From Escherichia coli (GTDB lineage Bacteria > Pseudomonadota > Gammaproteobacteria > Enterobacterales > Enterobacteriaceae): a DNA stretch of 64,000 nucleotides. The notes beneath the pieces were generated by a model. It was not told the DNA's origin, did not search any database, and was given only the letters and a program-made list of their open reading frames with translations. The stretch lies in assembly GCF_022846255.1 (NCBI RefSeq), contig NZ_AP025682.1. One strand, written 5' to 3'. Positions 27,462 through 38,491 of this stretch are shown one piece after another. Within the stretch, counting starts at the first letter, position 1. Each line of letters opens with the position of its first letter. The translations under genes and the position numbers were made by a program.

Positions 27462-28797
27462 TGCTTCCGGGTGCATTCTCCTCTGCACATGCAACAGTTC
27501 GTCATCGCCACGTGCCCAAAAAGCATATAAAAACGAATCGAATCTGATCGTTTTTTCAATCGTTTTTCACAGGAATTTCGTAGGGTGTTCTCCGCTATAG
27601 CCTCCATATTTGCTGTCTTTTTCTTCATAAATCGTATGCAATATAACCAGTCTGTCAAGACATCTTCCCTGCTGTTGAGGTGACGATCTCATTTCTGGTC
27701 TTTTCCGGGAGAGAGACGGTCAGATGAGCGAGCCGGATTTACTGCCAGAGGTACTCCCCGCGGCAGAAAATAGTGCTCCTGTTTCCGCAATCCGGGATCG
27801 GTAACGTCCCATGGTTAATGCCACTTGCAGCGTCAGGCACTGCAGGTTTACGTCGTGATCTGATTTCTTCTGCACTTATCCCGATCACGGAAGCTCCCCC
27901 TGCGCAGACATCGGTTCCTGCCGACATCTCACAATACCGCCAGGCTGTCATGCAGTAACACCCGCAATGCGGTCTGCGGTTTTAAGCGCACTCTCCTGTT
28001 TTCAGTGCACCGATAAGCGTTATAGAAAGTCTGGGGTGAGTTACTGAATGTCTGTTAAGTGGTGCCGTGGGTGGAGACTGCTTACTTTTCCACAGCAACT
28101 GCAGTCATTCAGGATGCTCAGGAGAGAATATGTCAACGCCACGAGCCGGGCCATTTTCATGCCAGCCAGTATATTTTCTACACTGATGCAGTCTGATTTT
28201 CACCATTCCATCCTCACTGATTGTCGTGTTGTTTTGGGTCATCACCACAGCTTTCCGTTTCTCTTTTAATCGGTAACGCTCTCCTTTGATATTCAGCGTG
28301 GTTGAGTGATGCAGCAGTCAATCCAGGAGCGCTGTTGTCCGGCAACCACCATATCAACTTCTTCCCGGCGTGCCGGCGCTGGTATCCAGGCCGGGTTTCG
28401 AAGCGAAGCGTTCCTGACGGACTCATTGACATCCGGGCCGGATGTAGTCATGCAGCATGGAACGTCCGCCCGTATACACTGACGGCGTCCGGCCGTGTAC
28501 AGAGATCGGTAAAATTCGTTACTACAACTGTTCCTGAATATCTGACGAAGAAACATTCAGCAATAACATCCGGCCGTGTACATCTCTTTTGCGGTGCAGG
28601 GAGCACTGTCGCCATGTACTTATTGTCACCAGGGTGAGGCATGTACCGCAGCATGCCAGCTCAGCAATGACAGGATGCCCTTAAGACATCCGTCATGGCT
28701 CAGTATGATGACGACGAACACGCTCTGCAGGTGAGCATGCAGGACCGGGGGTATCATCATTTCCGTATTTTGCCGCAGCTTCCGGAAACAACCGGCA

Positions 28798-29400
28798 TCA
28801 GTTACGGTTACCGTCAACCGTTGTGCGGTATGCCAGGAGCACGTACTGATCCATCAGATCCGTCAGTGCTGCGTTCTGCTTCTGACGGTCGATGATCCAT
28901 TCCCCCAGCTCTTTTTCTGATTTCCGTTTCAGGTTCTCCGTCCAGTCGTCAAGGCTGTTTCCGGTCATTAAATCAAGCCAGCAAAGCCAGACCAGTTTGA
29001 GGCGCAACTCCGTGCCACCAAACTGACGGAAGAGGCTGATCAGTTTATTTGCCAGAGAACGCTGCCTCAGACGTTCACATTCAGACAGCAGAATCCCTTC
29101 CAGCATCGGATGATGAACCAGCAGATGTTCGCTGGTGCATAAGTTCACCACCAGATCATCATCCAGGGGCGGCGTGGCCCGTTTGTCAGAGCCATAAATC
29201 AGCCGGTGCAGACTCCGGGGTACGATGGCAATCTTCGGTTTTTCACCATTGAATGACACCCACCCGGGCGTCAGATTATGGAAGTAGTGGATATTCGGAT
29301 GACACACGCCCCAGGATACGGCGTGCCGGGTGAAGCCGGTCAGCCATTTCTGGTAGCTTTCGTGGAGCAGCTCGTAACGGGTCTGATACTGTGGTTTCAT
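28798..29400 (-). CDS. Hypothetical protein immediately downstream of alpA (P4-like/satellite-type cargo)
   Basis: About 200-aa ORF; start placed at MKPQYQ because GAGGAA lies 7 nt upstream; co-oriented with alpA. Confidence 0.4.
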   Translation of the reverse strand: MKPQYQTRYELLHESYQKWLTGFTRHAVSWGVCHPNIHYFHNLTPGWVSFNGEKPKIAIVPRSLHRLIYGSDKRATPPLDDDLVVNLCTSEHLLVHHPMLEGILLSECERLRQRSLANKLISLFRQFGGTELRLKLVWLCWLDLMTGNSLDDWTENLKRKSEKELGEWIIDRQKQNAALTDLMDQYVLLAYRTTVDGNRN

Positions 29401-29493
29401 TTTCATATTCCTCACGGGGGATAACAGGCAGCAGAGTGCCGCCGGCAGGCCGGAGATTGCGTCTGCTGTGGGCGAAGGGCCAGTGGTTAAAAA

Positions 29494-29700
29494 TTACGGA
29501 CGGGACTGTGCAATACGCGCCTGCAGCCAGGCTTCCACTTCACTTTTCAGCCAGCGGGAGCTGCGGCCGAGTTTGATGGGAGCCGGAAAGGCCCCATCCT
29601 TGATGAGCTTGTAAAACCACTTATCGGTCAGGCCGGTCAGCTGAGTGATAAACGTCATATCGACCATCTGGTCATCCATCAGCGAAACTGGGGTGGTCAT
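29494..29700 (-). CDS. alpA: AlpA-family phage transcriptional regulator (prophage regulatory protein)
   Basis: 68-aa ORF with the AlpA signature ...ITQLTGLTDKWFYKLIKDGAFPAPIKLGRSSRWLKSEVEAWL... Confidence 0.7.
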   Translation of the reverse strand: MTTPVSLMDDQMVDMTFITQLTGLTDKWFYKLIKDGAFPAPIKLGRSSRWLKSEVEAWLQARIAQSRP

Positions 29701-30083
29701 AAAAATCTTCTCCGGATGTTGTTAATCTCAGCCGGCGTTGATGATGAAAACAACGCACCACCTTCACCGGCATAACAACCGGGGAGAAACGTAAAAAATC
29801 AGTAGGGGAATATTCCTGCCAGGAGAGAAACTGTTGTGTACAGGCAATACAGGTTGTCTGTTTTGTCAGTGAAGCCGGTATAAACGGAAGATGATTTTGT
29901 GTTGCCGGAATATGGGATGGCGTTTTGCCGTGACAGGATCAGTATTTTCAGTGATGATTATTACTGTGCAGGGGAGTACCGGAGAGAAACCACGCCCTGT
30001 ACCTGCCAGAGCGGTGGTTTGTATTGACTGAACGGAAGATAAAGCGAGGTAAACACTGTTGTGGTGAGCGGAGAAGACTGAGA

Positions 30084-30875
30084 TTATTCTCTGTAATTAC
30101 AAACAACAGTGATCTTATCCGGTTTTTTTACCGTTACGGGTTTCAGGGGATCAATTTTATAGACCGGGGTAATGACCACGCCGGAATTTATGGAGAAAAG
30201 CGGGATCCAGCAATAAACGTCAGGATATTTCTGTGTCTCCGGAATACCTTTTGTGCCAGAGGCCATCAGATCTTTAACGCTCACGAAAAATGACTTCCTA
30301 AGATCAAAAAAGTACTCGTTATATATCACATCCTTTGCCAGCAGGATGACTGCATTACCAACAGCCGATTTTACAGGTGTTTCATCAGGTGGATTATCGT
30401 GATTGTATATTGTTCTTTCTATATAAATAAAGCAGGCATATTTCGTCTTCTCCCCGGACAGTTGCATCTGGTATTCGCAAATGTCTTTGATACGCCGGCT
30501 TTCAACCCGTCCAATCATCTTATCCCGGCGATAGTGTCTTTTATGTTTCAGCGCGTACAGAACACCATTTGAACTGTCAAACTCCAGGATTTTTTTGGTG
30601 AAAAGTTTGTTTTCCCAGATTTCCAGACAATACTTCTCTGCGCTGACGACATTGCGTTTGTGGGGAAGATCCCGTTGATACACTCCATTTAATAAGCGTG
30701 ACTGCAGTTCGCCTGCAAGTTGATAGTAACAGTTAATGTCATTAAGGACAGGTGCTGTGGCGTTGAGTAATGTGTTGATTACCTTAGAGCGCGAAAGTTT
30801 GTGGATATGACAGTACTCATCCACAATTCGCAGCGTCTCATCACTGGTCATATTGAAAGTTATACGTGTTGTCAT
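30084..30875 (-). CDS. Hypothetical protein, possible N-terminal ribbon-helix-helix DNA-binding domain plus about 220-aa domain of unknown function
   Basis: 263-aa AT-rich ORF; N-terminus RITFNMTSDETLRIVDEYCHIHKLSRSKVINTLLNA is RHH-like by pattern; no strong RBS seen. Confidence 0.4.
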   Translation of the reverse strand: MTTRITFNMTSDETLRIVDEYCHIHKLSRSKVINTLLNATAPVLNDINCYYQLAGELQSRLLNGVYQRDLPHKRNVVSAEKYCLEIWENKLFTKKILEFDSSNGVLYALKHKRHYRRDKMIGRVESRRIKDICEYQMQLSGEKTKYACFIYIERTIYNHDNPPDETPVKSAVGNAVILLAKDVIYNEYFFDLRKSFFVSVKDLMASGTKGIPETQKYPDVYCWIPLFSINSGVVITPVYKIDPLKPVTVKKPDKITVVCNYRE

Positions 30876-31207
30876 GATGAAGTTTTCTGTTAATCATACT
30901 GGTTGATATGCATAACATTTCATAAAAAATGCTTTTAATTCATATAATTGATTTTTTGACTGGTTTTATCCTCGTGTGGTGGAAAGCAGTATTACTGCCA
31001 CTGTAGTCAGCATAACGCTATCACACAGAACCACCGAAAATGAAGCATTGCTCAGGGGGAAGCTGCCACTCGTATGAGTTCTCTGAACCATGATAACCAG
31101 TATTTTTCGTTTTGGGTGATTTGTTTATCGTTACAGCCATAAGCAGTTCATGTACCATTAAAAAATAATTAAGGTTAATTAGTATTATTTATAGAAGTAT
31201 GTTTATG

Positions 31208-31345
31208 TAACTCTACCTTGTAACTCTACCGTGTAAATGAACCCTGTAATTCTACCTTGTAAATGAACTCTGTCATTGTACCCTGTAATTCTACCTCTAC
31301 CTCTACCTCTACCTCTACCTCTACCTCTACCTCGTAAATACACCT
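31208..31345. repeat. Iteron-like repeat block: seven imperfect 12-13 bp direct repeats (TGTAA[C/T]TCTACC type) followed by (CTACCT)x7
   Basis: Direct reading; the hexamer array spans 31291-31332; about 0.9 kb upstream of a Rep-like gene. Confidence 0.8.
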
Positions 31346-32227
31346 TGTAACCAAGTCCTGTAGAAGTCTGTCTCATAGAAATATGTTCCTGTGCAGTGAT
31401 ACTCTCTGTAGTAGTACTTGTAACTCTGTCCTTAACTCTCTCTTCAGTAATGTAGTCCCGCAACACCTGAATATAAATCTGTAATGTACACACACTGACT
31501 GTAACGTGCTTTGTTAAGTAATACCTGTTATTTCTTCTGTTATTTTTCCTGTTGTTTTCTGTATTTTGTTGTATGGAGTAATAACTCTTCTGAACCCGTC
31601 ATCACCTTTATAGCTAAGAGTATGACTTCGCCAGTGTTGATACTGTGGATAACGGTGATTAAGGAATTACTGTTAATGATCTGTTCCTGCAGCTCACCTG
31701 ATGAGTTTTGGTAGTAATACGTAAAAGAGTATGCCTTATGCCATTAAACAGCCTTACGGAATGTTGTTTAACCCTGTACCTCTGTTACTCATGTAGTACG
31801 TTGCGGAAAGCTACGTTAATTGTAATATCTGGTTATGGCGTTATGCCTTCAGTATTAAAAACATCTTTTACCGGAGAAACAGGGAAGTGGGGAAAGGCTT
31901 TCGGGATAACGTCAGGCCATTCTGACGGTATTACGTTAATCACAGTACAGGATAACGGGAGGGTAATGGAATTTTAAACCAGAGTAGTTCCACTGTTGTT
32001 CACTGGAAAAAGTGATTTCCCACGCGCGTTATAAACGCCTTTCCGCTTCAGTCTGGTTACCAGAGCTTCAGGCGTTATATGCGCTGTAACTGGCTGTTAC
32101 GTATGCTGTTCTCTGTCTGCTTCTGATACCCCTGGACGTCGTTACCGGAGGTCACCCTGCCTGATAACGTTTTCTTCAAAAATTACGCCAGCGCTTCTTC
32201 CTGTGTTACAGAACACGAGGAAGAAAC

Positions 32228-32827
32228 ATGAAGACTTACAACACCAATCCCGGTTACGAAATGGATCCCCAGCTCCTGACACACTTTAACCAGCATCTGG
32301 ATTCATTATTCGGGGTATATTCGAAACTGTTACCGTTCAGAATGGATTTTGCTTACCGAAAAAACACCCTCAGCTACAGGTGTGCCTGCAGGTACGCCAT
32401 GTGCGCGGAGATACTGCGACTGATTAACGAAGTGGGAGAGAAACTGGTCGGGTATGCCTGGGTAATGGAATATACGGAACGTAAAGGGCTTCACATTCAT
32501 TTTGTGGGCTATCTGAACGGTCAGAGCCACAGGAGTTCGTATCTGGTATCCAGATTGATGGGAGATATCTGGAGGCGGGTTACCGAGGGTGATGGTTACT
32601 ACCACTGGTGCCGGTTTAATAAAAATTATCCGGTAAACATTAACCACGTCATTCACTATTCAGATCACAAAGCGGTGAATGCCTTACGCTATGCCCTCAG
32701 CTACCTGGCCAAACGAGAACAGAAAGAATGTGGCATCATCCTGAAATGCAGCGGGCTTCCTGAAAAAAGTAACCGGGGTCGACCGCGACTGGGCAGCACC
32801 CTGCCGGAGACTTATTCTCTGGTGTAA
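32228..32827 (+). CDS. Putative HUH-type replication initiator-like protein (YagK/YfjJ, inovirus Gp2-like family)
   Basis: 199-aa ORF with a GAGGAAG RBS; HUH-like motif LHIHFVGY and downstream Tyr-containing motif YALSYLAKRE; family assignment from memory. Confidence 0.45.
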   Translation: MKTYNTNPGYEMDPQLLTHFNQHLDSLFGVYSKLLPFRMDFAYRKNTLSYRCACRYAMCAEILRLINEVGEKLVGYAWVMEYTERKGLHIHFVGYLNGQSHRSSYLVSRLMGDIWRRVTEGDGYYHWCRFNKNYPVNINHVIHYSDHKAVNALRYALSYLAKREQKECGIILKCSGLPEKSNRGRPRLGSTLPETYSLV

Positions 32828-33192
32828 GACCCTGAACGACAACTACGGGCTGGCGCTAATTGTTACGGTCGGTTCCGGAGGCCACTTCAGGGACTCTGCG
32901 CATTTTTTACGACATGGCTATTCCGTATGAACCATACGGAGATTTAACCATGGCACATTCTTTACCATTCCTTCCGGCAACCGATACAGCGCATCCCCCG
33001 ATGTCCATCCCTGCCTGCTGACAGTTTTTTACGCCGGTGGGCCATTGTGTGACAACCACAGTGCTGTAACAGCAACCAGCCTGCTTTACCCAAACTCCAG
33101 TCCAGATTTTAACTGAACCGCCATTCACCCCCTGACCACACTGCCCGTACCGGGACAGCTGTTGCCTGCGTGTCGTCTGGCGGCTGAGGAAT

Positions 33193-33582
33193 ATGACGAT
33201 GTACGCAAAATCCTTTATTGCATTTGATGGCAACGGGCGTCTGACGGGTGCCCGTACCGCACAGACTGCACCTTACGATCGCTACACTTACCACCTTTGC
33301 GGCAGTGCGCTCAGATACCACCCGCAATACGACACTGAGCGTCCCTGGTTTGAACACACTGACGACGGGCTGACGGAGCACGGTCAGCAGTGCCCTTATG
33401 TCAGACCGGAACGCAGGGAGATACAACTGATTAAGCGTCTGCAGCAATTCGTACCGGATGCCTTACCCGTGGTGCGTAAAGCCAGCCGGCACTGCAGACA
33501 ATGTCATCACGATTATTATGGGGAGCGGTACTGCACGCACTGCCATACCGGGCACTTCAGTGAGGAGGGGGTGGCAGAATGA
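33193..33582 (+). CDS. Cys-rich hypothetical protein (zinc-ribbon-like), paralog 1
   Basis: 129-aa ORF with a TGAGGAA RBS; motifs C-x2-C ... WFEH ... C-x2-C-x8-C-x2-C-H-TG. Confidence 0.45.
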   Translation: MTMYAKSFIAFDGNGRLTGARTAQTAPYDRYTYHLCGSALRYHPQYDTERPWFEHTDDGLTEHGQQCPYVRPERREIQLIKRLQQFVPDALPVVRKASRHCRQCHHDYYGERYCTHCHTGHFSEEGVAE

Positions 33583-34004
33583 ACGGTATAAAAACGGGGC
33601 TGGGGATCACGCCGGGTGAACACATAATCAGTGCTGATTCTGCACTCAGCAGAAATATCCGGCAGTGTTTCTGCCTTTCCTGTCATGGCCGGTTGATTTT
33701 GCAGACAGATGCTCAGGGGGCATGGTTTGAGCATGATTTATATGCCCTGAGCGAGCAACAGAAGGCAGCCTGCGTGGTGCTGAATCCGGAGAAGTCCCAC
33801 CCTTACATTGAGGATATGGCGATGTTTTTATCGCCATTACCGGTCGTGCTGGAGTGGCATTGTATGATGTGCGAGGGGCTTTTTCATGGGAAGAAGTTCT
33901 GTGAGGCCTGTGGTACGGGGATTTATTGCAGAGCAACATGTACGAAGTATGTTTACAGGTACCAGCCAGATTTGTACCAGGACTGCGGAGGTGCACTCAC
34001 TTAA
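33579..34004 (+). CDS. Cys-rich hypothetical protein (zinc-ribbon-like), paralog 2, translationally coupled to paralog 1
   Basis: 141-aa ORF; ATGA start/stop overlap at 33579-33582 with a GAGGAGGGGG SD; same C-x2-C ... WFEH ... C-x2-C ... C-x2-C-G-TG pattern as paralog 1. Confidence 0.45.
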   Translation: MNGIKTGLGITPGEHIISADSALSRNIRQCFCLSCHGRLILQTDAQGAWFEHDLYALSEQQKAACVVLNPEKSHPYIEDMAMFLSPLPVVLEWHCMMCEGLFHGKKFCEACGTGIYCRATCTKYVYRYQPDLYQDCGGALT

Positions 34005-34706
34005 TCCGAAATGCCCGCTCTGCTCAGGGCGTTCAGGCTGACTATCAATGGCATACATTTTATCCGGTGTTTCGCACCCACACCGTGCAACGACTCGACA
34101 CCGGATATCCGCAGTCCCGCTTACCTGAATAAAACCCGGGGGATTGATTGTGTACTGTGGTGTGAAATCGCACCGTGATCGCTGATTCGCCGAATCCGCA
34201 CTGTGGTGTCAATCAACCACACGCGAGAGTCGTCTCAGGCTTCGCCTGCCTCAGGACGATTTCTGCATAGCTAATTCCCGGGGCAACATTTATAGAGGCG
34301 CTGTGCGCTCTGATGGTCGCCACTTCTGACCCGGACCATGCTCCTGATATGTCGGAATATAATGTGATGTTAGGCATCAGAGAGGAATATTTCGATGCCC
34401 CTAATCTGGGGCGTTTGATTCTGGATGTCTGGAGCAATCCGGGCTTTGTGTCACCGGACGAATCAAAGCAGTACCACCCGGGATGTGGCGCTGGATCGTC
34501 ATTCACCGGACTGTGAAGACATACTTAAAGAGCTGATATGGGCGTTCAGTGATTTCGCCCGCGATCATCGTGGTGTGTGTGATCCGGAAGCCCGTTACCT
34601 CGCCGGTAATCCTTGGTATCCGTAGCAGGCCAGCTCTGAAAGCACAGCTCAGCAGATTCCCCGCATTCGCACAACCTTCATAAATCTCACAGAGGACATT
34701 GTGGCC

Positions 34707-34916
34707 ATGTTGACCACAACAAGCCACGACAGCGTATTGCTGCGTTCCGATGATCCCCTGCTCGACATGAACTACATCACCAGTTTCACCGGCATGACCG
34801 ACAAATAGTTTTATAAACTGATCAGTGAAGGCTATTTTCAAACTGGGCGGTACAAAAGCGAAGTGGAGCAGTGGATGCAGCAGCGAATAGAGGGAGCGTG
34901 GGGGCAGCAGGATGAA
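34707..34916 (+). pseudogene. alpA-like regulator pseudogene (in-frame amber at codon 34 replacing the conserved Trp; normal stop lost)
   Basis: Translation MLTTTSHDSVLLRSDDPLLDMNYITSFTGMTDK-stop-FYKLISEGYFQTGRYKSEVEQWMQQRIE parallels the intact AlpA at 29494-29700; TAG at 34806-34808. Confidence 0.5.
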
Positions 34917-35816
34917 ATGTGTTGTGATGCCGGTACGCTGGCATTGTGCAAAATGCCGGCGCTACTATTGTGGAAATCAGCCCTGTCCCTGGTGCTGGCG
35001 ATACTCCCTGCAGACATTCTCCGGTCAGCCAATAGGTTGTTGCTCTTTCCTGATCGATTCGTCATTCCATTCTTTTTGTTTATAATGGGCATTACACTGG
35101 TGTTGGCGTGTTTACCTGCGTGTCTGCACCGGTTCAGTAAAATTAGAAAAGTTCAGAGTCGGGGGAAATCCGGCGTTTTGTTCAGCAGGCGGTGGATCAC
35201 TGGCCAAATCTGTTGGCATTTCACTTCACGTTCCATTCGACAGAAGGAAACATCTACGGGCAACAGATTCATGCATTCTGCACTTCCTTTTACCAACAGA
35301 TACACAAACGTATTACTGCACGTACTCACACGACCAGTCCATCATCGCCGTTGGTGTTACACTGGCTGCTGGAACAACATGGAGGAGCAGTAATACGATG
35401 CGTATTGCTCCTCAGCCAGACGAGTATTTGTCATCCGCGAGCCAGCGTCACGGTTGATGAAGAATGTTCGAAACTGGTGGATTTATTGCAACAGATCTGG
35501 CCAGTGATAAGCACTGGCGGACAATGCCAAGTGGAAAGGTGTTTTCAGGTTGCCCGGGGTGATACATCAGAGCAATACGTTGCGTTAAAAACAGATGCGT
35601 TGTCGTTTGCTGTGTCGGATCACAAATCATCCGGTGCAGAGTAGTATTCTGGCTGTATTCTGGTAAATCAGCGTATTATCGATATATTATCGTACTATCA
35701 GAAACCGTATCGTCTGTTGATGGCTAGACTGGCCCCCCTGAATCTTCAGACAACCAATATCACTTATTTAAGTGATAGTCTTACTACTAGTTTTTAGACT
35801 AGTCATTGGAGAACAG

Positions 35817-36182
35817 ATGATTGATGTCTTAGGACCGGAGAAACGCAGACGGTGTACCACTCAGAAAAAATCGATATTGTTCAGCAGAGCCTTGAACCGG
35901 GGATGACAGTCTCTCTCGTTGCACGGCAACACGGTGTGGCAGCCAGTTATATCTCTGGCGCAAGCAATACCAGGAAGGAAGTCTCACTGCTGTGGCTGCC
36001 GGAGAGCAGGTTGTTCCGGCCTCTGAGCTTGCTGCCGCCATGAAGCAAATTAAAGAACTCCAGCGCCTGCTCGGCAAGAAAACGATGGAAATGAACTCCT
36101 TAAAGAGGCCGTCGAATATGGACGGGCAAAAAAGTGGATAGCGCACGCCCCTTATTGCCCGGGGATGAGGAGTAAACGTCGT
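35817..36182 (+). pseudogene. insC: IS2 orfA (insC) disrupted by frameshifts
   Basis: The frame from ATG 35817 stops after 29 codons; the conserved InsC segments ([53 protein letters not shown]) appear in three different frames. Confidence 0.5.
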
Positions 36183-36198
36183 CAGTCGTTGTCGCCGG

Positions 36199-37038
36199 GT
36201 GTCGCATGAGCAGTTGCACATCATTCTCAGACGAAGTGATGACTGGAAGGATGGCCGCCGCAGTCTTCACACTGATGATACGGATGTGCTTCTCCGGATA
36301 CATCATATCATCGGAGAGTTGCCCACGTATGGTTATCGTCGGGTATGGGCGCTGCTTCGCAGACAGGCAGAACTTGATGGTATGTCTGCGATCAATGCCA
36401 AACGTGTTTACCGGAACATGCGCCAGAATGCGCTGTTGCTTGAGCGAAAACCCGCTGTACCGCCATCGAAACAGGCACATACCGGCAGAGTGGCCGTGAA
36501 AGAAAGTAATCAGCGATGGTGCTCTGACGGGGTCGAGTTCCGCTGTGATAACGGAGAGAGACTGCGTGTCACATTCGCGCTGGACTGCTGTGATCGTGAG
36601 GCACTGCACTGGGCGGTGACCACCGGCGGCTTCAACAGTGAAACAGTACAGGACGTCATGCTGGGAGCGGTGGAACGCCGCTTCGGCAACGATCTTCCGT
36701 CGTCTCCAGTGGAGTCGCTGACGGATAATGGTTCATGCTACCGGGCTAATGAAACACGCCAGTTCGCCCGGATGTTGGGACTTGAACCGAAGAACACGGC
36801 GGTGCGGAGTCCGGAGAGTAACGGAATAGCAGAGAGCTTCGTGAAAACGATAAAGCGTGACTACATCAGTATCATGCCTAAACCAGACGGGTTAACGGCA
36901 GCAAAGAACCTTGCAGAGGCGTTCGAGCATTATAACGAATGGCATCCGCATAGTGCGCTGGGTTATCGCTCGCCACGGGAATATCTGCGGCAGCGGGCTT
37001 GTAATGGGTTAAGTGATAACAGATGTCTGGAAATATAG
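36199..37038 (+). CDS. insD: IS2 transposase orfB (InsD, DDE integrase-fold catalytic domain)
   Basis: 279-aa ORF recalled as InsD-like (...[13 protein letters not shown]...NQRWCSDG...[10 protein letters not shown]...[14 protein letters not shown]...). Confidence 0.8.
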
Positions 37039-37049
37039 GGGCAAATCCA

Positions 37050-37508
37050 AACATAGGTTGAGGTGTTTTGTCCATGCAGACGAATGCAATTAGCGACGTT
37101 GACTCCGGCCTGACGAGTTTGCTCTAGTAATGTTTCTCCATAAAAATCATTGCCTACAGCAGATATCAGATGTACATCCCGGCCCAGCAAAGCGAGATTA
37201 TGAGCGATATTGCGACCTACCCCACCAGCAGAGCAATAAATTCTGCCTGGATTAGAGGAGGTCTGTGGATAACTTATATCCGCTACACCACGAATATCCA
37301 TGTTAATCGCACCCAATGCGACACAATATTTTTGTTGAGTCAAGATGTAACCTTTACCTTTGATAGCCCCTTTACGCATTAGATCCATTATGTGCGCAGC
37401 GACACGCGAACGACTGATCTGCAAAATATCAGCAATTTCACTCTGTTGAATCAGTGGATTACGTCGCAGGATGCTGAGTATTTCTTTTTCTCTGTGATCC
37501 ATCGGCAT
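37050..37508 (-). pseudogene. HTH-containing PfkB-family sugar kinase (YeiI-like) gene truncated by the IS2 insertion
   Basis: N-terminal HTH (EKEILSILRRNPLIQQSEIADILQISRSRVAAHIMDLMRKG) followed by a ribokinase-type motif (GGVGRNIAHNLALLG). The reading frame runs straight into the IS2 right end at 37049. Confidence 0.5.
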
Positions 37509-38491
37509 GCTCCTGTCTGTTTATTTAATGTTCATAAAAATGATATTCAATGTCCTCTCATGAGTATTACTCAGGAAATAATATCGTCGAATTTTTTTCT
37601 GAGTAATAAGATATAATATATCAGTTTTTCTTAACAAATTGTAGGCTGATTTGAGTTGAATCCAGATGATTGAACTCATTCAGTCAAGCCAAATGATTGA
37701 GAAATTTCGTTTTCCGATATGTGATTGTTGCGTTGTGGTTGGGATAATGTAATCTATTTTCCATGTGGGAGAAAAAACCTTCACTATCGTGTAATCGTGG
37801 ATTCAATCTGGAACGACAACGTCCAACCATTGTTCTGCAACATGATGTGAGTGTCAGTTGGTGGTTCCGGATAAAGGAATAAAAGAAGATAGATTATTAA
37901 TCCCCTGATATATAACGCGATTTGTAATTAAATAGTCTTATTTGATGTTGAACGTTAAATAGCTTCTCTATTGTGATGTAACAATATACAGTGATTAATG
38001 ACAAGCATCTTGCAATGCATCTTACAATGTTATACTTTGATATTTTTGGCTGTGTTGGTCAGAGGCTGACTTCGCGGAATATTTATTTCGTAATTCAAAA
38101 AAATATTGATGTCTTTTTTATAAACCCAAAAATCGAATGAAAGAATCAGATTGTATATCTGATACAGATCATGGAAAAATGAATGTTCACTCGTATAGAC
38201 TCCTGATAAGTCAATAGTGAGTATAGTAAATATGATCATTTATTGTTTCGTTTTATCAATCTTATTGATTATTCTTCTGTTTTTCTTCTATTCTAAGAGA
38301 TGGGTGTCTGCTTTTTATAGATATCGTCAAAAGCGCTATCATCAGAAAGTCAGGGACAAAGCGTTTAATGCTTATGCAGAGGAAATGAAGAAAAAGAACA
38401 AAGATATAAAAAAATATAAACATTTCTGGCTTCCTCCACTCTGATTCATTAGTGTGTGTAGTTCCGATATCTTGTTTTACAGGAGAATATC

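Follow-up and report, generated by a model that had tools for sequence, protein, structure and literature searches.

The window analyzed here, a 64,000-nucleotide (nt) stretch of the Escherichia coli contig NZ_AP025682.1 (assembly GCF_022846255.1), contains two overlapping open reading frames (ORFs) on the plus strand, 33193-33582 (129 amino acids, aa) and 33579-34004 (141 aa), which code for a pair of small, Cys-rich proteins that we refer to as ZnR-A and ZnR-B, or A and B. We find that these zinc ribbon (ZnR) genes belong to the core, and not to the cargo, of tRNA-associated islands in Enterobacterales, pathogenicity and defence islands in which AlpA occurs together with a YfjJ/Gp2-like protein. 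The two ORFs are real genes for paralogous proteins that are co-transcribed and probably co-translated. The window represents the backbone of an E. coli pathogenicity island, with kps capsule genes, CbtA/CbeA, RadC/JAB, antirestriction, DUF932, Ag43, GTPase, AlpA, and Hha genes and insertion sequence (IS) elements, and both hallmarks of the island core are found close to the pair, a Gp2-like gene at 32228-32827 and an AlpA gene at 29494-29700.

An earlier note on this DNA held that neither protein corresponds to a family that can be named. Both are in fact full-length members of DUF7828 (PF25165; A, E = 5.7e-29, model positions 1-87 of 87; B, E = 2.8e-22, positions 2-86 of 87) and of Zn_ribbon_11 (PF11682, formerly DUF3279; A, E = 1.3e-6; B, E = 1.4e-13), and each carries the RefSeq product name "putative zinc ribbon protein." The family is already catalogued and the two genes themselves are not new, with the exact A and B sequences present in NCBI/RefSeq, UniRef, and other collections. 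UniProt names for the family include "Ybl85" and, misleadingly, "DNA-directed RNA polymerase, beta subunit/140 kD subunit."

We aligned 39 diverse homologs, many of them at just ~20-30% identity; all of them (39/39) match both DUF7828 and Zn_ribbon_11. In the numbering of B, Cys-35, Phe-50, His-52, Cys-65, Cys-95, Cys-98, Cys-108, and Cys-111 are invariant in this alignment, and Cys-32, Trp-93, Gly-104, and Gly-114 are nearly so. Each protein is predicted from these columns to contain two zinc sites, an N-terminal CCHC finger (site 1, C32-x2-C35 … (W)F(E)H52 … C65) and a C-terminal, classical C4 zinc ribbon (site 2, C95-x2-C98-x9-C108-x2-C111, followed by x-T/S-G). The zinc-binding modules proposed in the earlier note are thus consistent with the conserved Cys/His clusters in each protein, and the pattern persists among homologs, with the C/C/H/C and C/C/C/C columns kept across the 39 sequences down to ~20% identity. 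Its details require some revision: the two pairs of the C-terminal motif are separated by nine residues and not by eight, and the trailing G-T-G is present in B but reads H-T-G in A. The first C-x2-C, described as shared by the two proteins, holds for the family and for B but not for A of the window. Here, Tyr-33 (129-aa numbering) replaces the first ligand in the sequence Y-H-L-C, which leaves the CCHC set (Cys-33, Cys-36, His-55, and Cys-67 in the same numbering) incomplete and makes this A the only one of the 39 sequences that lacks Cys-32. The closest E. coli relatives, L001 and L002, carry a Cys at this position, as does every other member of the alignment, and the exact Tyr-33 protein was detected on only 8 contigs, in a cluster of 1631 members. 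This rare allele probably damages the first predicted zinc site of A in the strain.

Structure predictions with AlphaFold2 yielded confident models, with mean predicted local distance difference test values of 80.6 for A and 84.5 for B and with 93 residues of B at 90 or above. In these models, the N-terminal domain has short strands, one helix, and a beta-hairpin that closes with the WFEH motif, and a linker helix joins it to a three-stranded C-terminal ribbon (strands 88-95, 100-103, and 117-124 in B). The ribbon displays the hallmarks of the fold, a beta-hairpin between two C-x2-C knuckles whose four Cys residues are all conserved, and the models and the Zn_ribbon_11 matches together support the zinc-ribbon assignment; 17 of the 39 members in addition match Zn_ribbon_6 below threshold. 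A nuclease-like fold had also been suggested. A and B hold only the two small zinc modules, and it is the neighboring gene that encodes a nuclease-like protein.

We surveyed the genomic context of the family in ~20 distinct loci, not hundreds, from E. coli, Klebsiella, Hafnia, Yokenella, Superficieibacter, a record named Citrobacter farmeri, and metagenome contigs, using precomputed Pfam annotations and purpose-built hidden Markov models (HMMs) for Rep-like, AlpA, and zinc-ribbon proteins; a genome-wide locus scan with a narrower alignment gave five loci. In every surveyed locus with flanking sequence, the ZnR gene shares its strand with a gene of the YagK/YfjJ/"inovirus Gp2" type (Rep-like in the following) and is placed at most ~1.5 kb downstream of it, and AlpA is nearly always present. 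The commonest order is Rep-like – AlpA – ZnR, and a fuller version reads Rep-like – AlpA – ZnR-A – ZnR-B – second Rep-like. In the E. coli islands, we find Rep-like – ZnR-A – ZnR-B – (YagK/YfjJ – hypothetical – AlpA-like). In these loci, ZnR and Rep-like genes are equal in number, with one of each in L011, L014, L015, L016, L017, and L007 and two of each in L002, L003, and L020-L023. So far as the literature searched shows, this strict pairing with a Rep-like gene is new. Conservation ends with the ZnR genes, after which the variable cargo begins.

Among the sources sampled, the family appears to be limited to Enterobacterales. It is also a small one, as only 262 matches at E ≤ 0.001 were recovered among 1.84 billion cluster representatives. 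The genera represented are Escherichia, Salmonella, Citrobacter, Klebsiella, Enterobacter, Leclercia, Buttiauxella, Budvicia, Yersinia, Pectobacterium, Serratia, Photorhabdus, Hafnia, Yokenella, and Superficieibacter. The only named sources outside the order are two bins of metagenome-assembled genomes labeled Veillonella and Collinsella (P0195 and L025), which we take for enterobacterial contigs assigned to the wrong bins. DNA matching the pair is present in 3817 of 5426 complete E. coli genomes (~70%), with a median of 2 places per genome, and a single place covers at least 80% of both genes in 1406 E. coli genomes. DNA matches to A only, such as in UTI89, have a divergent second zinc-ribbon gene after A. 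A phage origin of the genes was rejected, with no tblastn match in 50,697 phage records, and so was a plasmid origin, with matches in just 33 of 72,556 plasmid records. Several of these 33 records are megabase-sized, and in the match from Klebsiella a large plasmid carries the genes within an island-like block.

The two genes are tightly linked. The earlier note had described an ATGA overlap, a strong Shine-Dalgarno sequence for the second gene embedded in the first, and translational coupling. Indeed, ATGA at 33579-33582 provides both the stop codon of A and the start codon of B, and a GAGGAGG sequence (33562-33568) is located inside A, 10 nt upstream of the ATG of B. This layout is the classical arrangement for translational coupling and would fit such a mechanism well. 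The ATGA overlap is also seen in L001 and L002. The two genes overlap by 13 nt in UTI89 and Klebsiella, with AGGAGG/GAGGAAG sites, by 13 nt in Superficieibacter, Hafnia, and Yokenella, and by 10 nt in Serratia oryzae. The true start of A is most likely ATG 33199, because it is placed 9 nt from a GAGG at 33186-33189, yields the MYAKSF N terminus typical of the family, and is the RefSeq start; an additional ATG upstream, at 33193, is spaced by just 3 nt from the same GAGG. No RNA family was detected in an Rfam scan of positions 28000-38000, and a promoter scan returned no plus-strand promoter-like site near A and B, with a total number of sites not above chance. Terminator-like hairpins are present in excess inside the two genes.

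The pair had further been interpreted as a tandem duplication. Its two members are indeed paralogs, which align significantly with each other (BLASTP E = 3e-10, 31% identity over 83 residues) and belong to the same two Pfam families, but the evidence speaks against a local or recent event. In a neighbor-joining tree, A-type proteins (MYAKSF…) form one clade, and B of the window falls into the other, large group (MRILK… type). B shares 17-29% identity with A-type proteins and 22-35% with distant B-type proteins from other genera. A and B thus belong to two deep clades, and the pair is not a recent local duplication. Overlapping A-B pairs also occur in Superficieibacter, Hafnia, and Yokenella and on the island carried by the Klebsiella plasmid. 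On the basis of the tree and the identities, we rejected a recent tandem duplication, and any duplication that produced A and B would be an ancient one.

Within E. coli, the B position shows allele replacement while A stays conserved: between the window and UTI89, A is 87% and B is 32% identical at the protein level. Such very different alleles between E. coli islands are seen when window positions 33579-34004 are compared with L019 9390-9800 (32% aa identity, with A at 87%), and P0052, P0053, P0057, and P0074 look like products of recombination between the two types of B allele. Purifying selection acts on both genes, with pairwise ratios of nonsynonymous to synonymous substitutions (dN/dS) of 0.10-0.34 for A and B wherever dS is unsaturated and of 0.12-0.22 for ZnR-A. 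Two E. coli-like sequences, P0121 and P0195, are in-frame A-B' fusions created by deletion and contain two DUF7828 domains and one ribbon, and the distant P0232 is a divergent, natural DUF7828-DUF7828-ribbon single chain. Each of the three is a singleton cluster and may be an assembly or mutation artifact.

The genes that follow the ZnR genes differ from locus to locus. We found DpdD/PLD/DEAD helicase genes in L003 (9051-16302), SNF2 helicase/AAA/S8 protease/methylase genes in L007 (8609-16387), SMEK_N-CTD10/MC6/DUF2326 genes in L011 (8400-11320), and a McrB-like gene in L017 (14251-14489). The occurrence of such different defence-type gene sets directly after the ZnR genes indicates that this position behaves as a cargo hotspot; in some of the E. 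coli islands, the cargo is metabolic. That the cargo is so often defensive (Dpd, SNF2/AAA/protease/methylase, SMEK/CTD10/MC6, McrB, and AbpAB in K-12) raises the question of whether A and B are themselves part of a conflict machinery, either as an anti-defence factor of the island, comparable with the antirestriction and RadC genes, or as a factor that senses or regulates the defence genes next to them. The antirestriction genes in the island core and the allele replacement at the B position, with recombinants such as P0052 and P0053, as is often the case for arms-race genes, would be in agreement with this idea. The ZnR genes are, however, retained whatever cargo follows, including the metabolic cargo of E. 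coli islands, and their dN/dS is well below 1. Scans with the NCBIfam, PADLOC, and PHROGs models gave no usable match for A or B (0 PADLOC families at E ≤ 0.1), so that there is neither a PADLOC match nor a notable PHROG match, and a phage homolog is lacking as well. We thus regard a role in conflict as improbable.

The constant neighbor of the ZnR genes is the Rep-like gene, which in the window encodes a protein with an HUH-like GLHIHF sequence, a Y-L-A-K motif, and an AT-hook-like RGRPR tail at its C terminus; an RGRPR-type tail is shared with two relatives, L014 and L003a. Most of 11 aligned Rep-like neighbors keep the H-x-H and Y-[LM]-A-K motifs, which, as judged by eye, would be equivalent to motifs II and III in rolling-circle endonucleases of the HUH type. 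Both motifs are gone from the second Rep-like genes L020b (L020 8900-9466) and L002b (L002 26466-27032), the products of which look catalytically dead.

We found a link between the N-terminal finger of A and B and the competence protein family CoiA. Eight of the 39 members match CoiA_N (PF25164) below the Pfam threshold at E ≤ 0.1, the best of them with 1.3e-3. Alignment of the family with the N terminus of Bacillus CoiA in hhalign gave a probability of 93.7% and E = 2e-7 over 50 columns, superimposing the leading beta-hairpin, C-x2-C-G-x2-L, [W/H]-F-[E/A]-H, and the following Cys. The CoiA input consisted of the N-terminal 83 residues of Bacillus CoiA proteins carrying PF25164, PF06054, and PF25166, and its alignment is shallow, with three close sequences. 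The case for homology between this finger and CoiA_N, built on profile comparisons, is good but not overwhelming, and the relationship is new so far as the literature searched shows. CoiA is a PD-(D/E)XK nuclease required to resolve the transformation D-loop, with a small putative zinc finger of unknown role at its N terminus (bioRxiv 10.1101/2024.02.06.579203); its nuclease has also been predicted (PMC1189080). A and B resemble CoiA in this N-terminal finger. CoiA then continues into the nuclease and a C-terminal domain, whereas A and B end in a C4 zinc ribbon: neither PF06054, the nuclease domain, nor CoiA_C (PF25166) is matched in them by Pfam, and their 127-141 aa are filled by the zinc modules. 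The nuclease of CoiA resides in the same chain as the finger; here, the HUH-type nuclease-like protein is encoded by a separate, adjacent gene.

We tentatively favor a reading, to which we assign somewhat less than an even chance, in which A and B serve as zinc-finger cofactors of the adjacent HUH-type YagK/YfjJ/Gp2-like protein in the processing of island DNA. A and B would bind DNA, or the HUH-type nuclease itself, and binding would target or control the nicking, replication, or mobilization of the excised island. The zinc finger would serve a nuclease in trans, much as CoiA_N does in cis, and in loci that have both, A and B would cooperate. Action with the Rep-like protein is suggested by the constant co-location, the matching numbers of ZnR and Rep-like genes, and the H-x-H and Y-L-A-K motifs; joint action of A and B is suggested by their overlapping frames with a strong Shine-Dalgarno sequence, conserved across genera, and more weakly by the rare A-B' fusions and the DUF7828-DUF7828-ribbon protein P0232. 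A more specific version of this reading casts the DUF7828/Zn_ribbon_11 proteins as DNA-targeting subunits of a split nuclease machine, in which a CoiA-type finger acts in trans to the HUH-type YfjJ/Gp2-like protein. Its targets would be the pathogenicity and defence islands of the most common class in enterobacteria, which it would nick and then replicate or mobilize as single-stranded DNA, and a conserved A together with an exchangeable B would set island-specific recognition. We consider this elaborate version doubtful.

Several observations weigh against a role as nuclease cofactors. The functional evidence is gene neighborhood only, and we found no paper on DUF3279, DUF7828, PF11682, or PF25165 in the literature searched. 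The HUH activity of the YagK/YfjJ proteins is itself putative, their Pfam matches being weak (~1e-4). In the K-12 element CP4-57, alpA-yfjI-yfjJ run straight into cargo without a ZnR gene, which shows that ZnR is not essential for YfjJ-type proteins, and A-type genes are found without an adjacent B in L007 and L003, such that a heterodimer cannot be obligatory. The family has a median isoelectric point of ~7 and a net charge of ~0, which is unusual for a general DNA binder.

This near-neutral charge would suit contact with RNA polymerase as well as DNA binding, and A and B could instead be small zinc-finger transcription factors of the island, acting with or downstream of AlpA and controlling the expression of the island or of its cargo. 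The Ogr protein of P2 and the Delta protein of P4 are zinc-finger activators of this kind, and Delta is a duplicated Ogr-like protein. The location of ZnR directly after AlpA in the commonest arrangement, at the border to the variable cargo, agrees with such a function, as does a weak sequence-profile resemblance to RPB9, a two-ribbon RNA polymerase subunit. RPB9 was the only result of a PDB sequence-profile search but is not significant (E = 0.04), and the family could not be assigned to RPB9/TFS. Likewise, Ogr_Delta is absent among the Pfam matches of A, B, and the 39 homologs, as is any other transcription-factor family, and both the equal numbers of ZnR and Rep-like genes and the homology with the CoiA finger point to DNA processing. 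We consider a role in transcription possible but rather unlikely.

Positions of the pair and its neighboring features are compiled in Table 1. In the window, Tyr-33 in A and the broken or missing AlpA-like and Rep-like genes further downstream suggest that the module has partly decayed, though both zinc-ribbon frames are intact. Positions 34376-34621 are a remnant of the hypothetical gene, and 34707-34904 represent an AlpA-like pseudogene, in which an in-frame TAG stands in place of a Trp in relatives (…TDK*FYKLI…). In strain 82.0312, B is followed by a YagK/YfjJ gene that the window lacks, and the degenerate ORF at 35150-35644 most closely resembles the second Rep-like gene in the Klebsiella locus, which is devoid of the motifs. 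Just upstream of it, at 34912-35085, we noted a 57-aa ORF with a W-H-C-x2-C-x9-C-x2-C pattern (RWHCAKCRRYYCGNQPCPWC), a position that echoes the pairing of ZnR and Rep-like genes. We rejected it as a third ribbon copy, as its match to the family HMM is weak (E = 8e-4) and has no Pfam support. A frameshifted transposase pair of the IS3 family (IS2-like) is located directly downstream of the decayed module (35772-37038), and its equivalent in strain DA33135 is annotated by RefSeq as a frameshifted IS3 family transposase.

One could conclude from this that the pair in the window is a decaying relic without current function, given a Tyr at an otherwise universally conserved Cys ligand in A, the deleted YagK/YfjJ gene, the AlpA-like gene with its internal stop, and the IS3-family element that follows. 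Both frames are nevertheless intact, no conserved position of B is changed, the Gp2-like gene upstream and the second AlpA gene are intact, and purifying selection acts on the family as a whole; a relic is, in our view, quite unlikely.

In the 1.35-kb divergent intergenic region between a minus-strand 263-aa ORF (30084-30875) and the Gp2-like gene, we observed ~11 copies of a 13-nt unit (TGTAACTCTACCT-like; 31206-31351), which run into a perfect (TCTACC)x7 repeat (31290-31333). The array is iteron-like in appearance, but we rejected this idea, as no equivalent was present in L007 (Klebsiella), L011, or L017; the corresponding region of L007 holds short 12-nt repeats. Given its absence from the other loci checked, the array cannot be linked to the ZnR family.

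Table 1. Features of the zinc-ribbon gene pair and its surroundings (window coordinates)
Feature	Position	Strand	Description
AlpA-family helix-turn-helix gene, intact	29494-29700	-	Purpose-built AlpA profile, hmmsearch E = 1e-40; RefSeq "helix-turn-helix transcriptional regulator"
Gp2/YagK-YfjJ-type partner gene, 199 aa	32228-32827	+	RefSeq "inovirus-type Gp2"; REP_ORF2-G2P 1.6e-4, YagK_YfjJ_C 1.9e-4
ZnR-A gene	33199-33582	+	127 aa from ATG 33199; DUF7828 then Zn_ribbon_11; A-type clade (MYAKSF...)
TAC codon, Tyr-33 (129-aa numbering)	33289-33291	+	Position of the first zinc-ligand Cys of A
Coupling junction	33562-33582	+	Shine-Dalgarno GAGGAGG 33562-33568 within the end of A; ATGA overlap 33579-33582
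ZnR-B gene	33579-34004	+	141 aa; DUF7828, Zn_ribbon_11, low-confidence Cys-rich tail; divergent B-type clade member
Decayed module continuation	34376-34904	+	tblastn, sequence, RefSeq pseudogene notes
Degenerate Rep-like (YagK/YfjJ-type) ORF	35150-35644	+	hmmsearch E = 1e-6; tblastn E = 1e-10 to L020b

The pair is valuable as a lead, since it belongs, together with AlpA and an HUH-like YfjJ/Gp2 protein, to the conserved core of virulence and defence islands in Enterobacterales. The CoiA_N homology and the pairing with Rep-like genes combine into a concrete, testable idea for how island DNA may be processed, and the split-nuclease version, if true, would provide supposedly immobile islands with a dedicated DNA-processing apparatus.

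We compared A and B to other small zinc proteins and the islands to other genomic islands. RPB9/TFS two-ribbon proteins are of similarly small size, and RPB9 also consists of two zinc modules joined by a linker. The Delta protein resembles A and B in its satellite or island setting and in the pairing of paralogs. Among E. coli elements, CP4-57 has a similar AlpA/YfjJ core (alpA-yfjI-yfjJ, then AbpAB) but lacks the zinc-ribbon family, which we found neither in this K-12 element nor in the examined part of CP4-6. Islands described in Pseudomonas combine a core of intY, alpA, inovirus Gp2-like, and RadC genes with defence cargo, contain no known transfer machinery, and are transduced by a jumbo phage (PMC12595487). 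Zinc-ribbon genes are not mentioned among the core genes in that report, but the core set and its layout are alike, with AlpA and a Gp2/YfjJ-like gene at one end, followed by RadC, antirestriction genes, and variable cargo.

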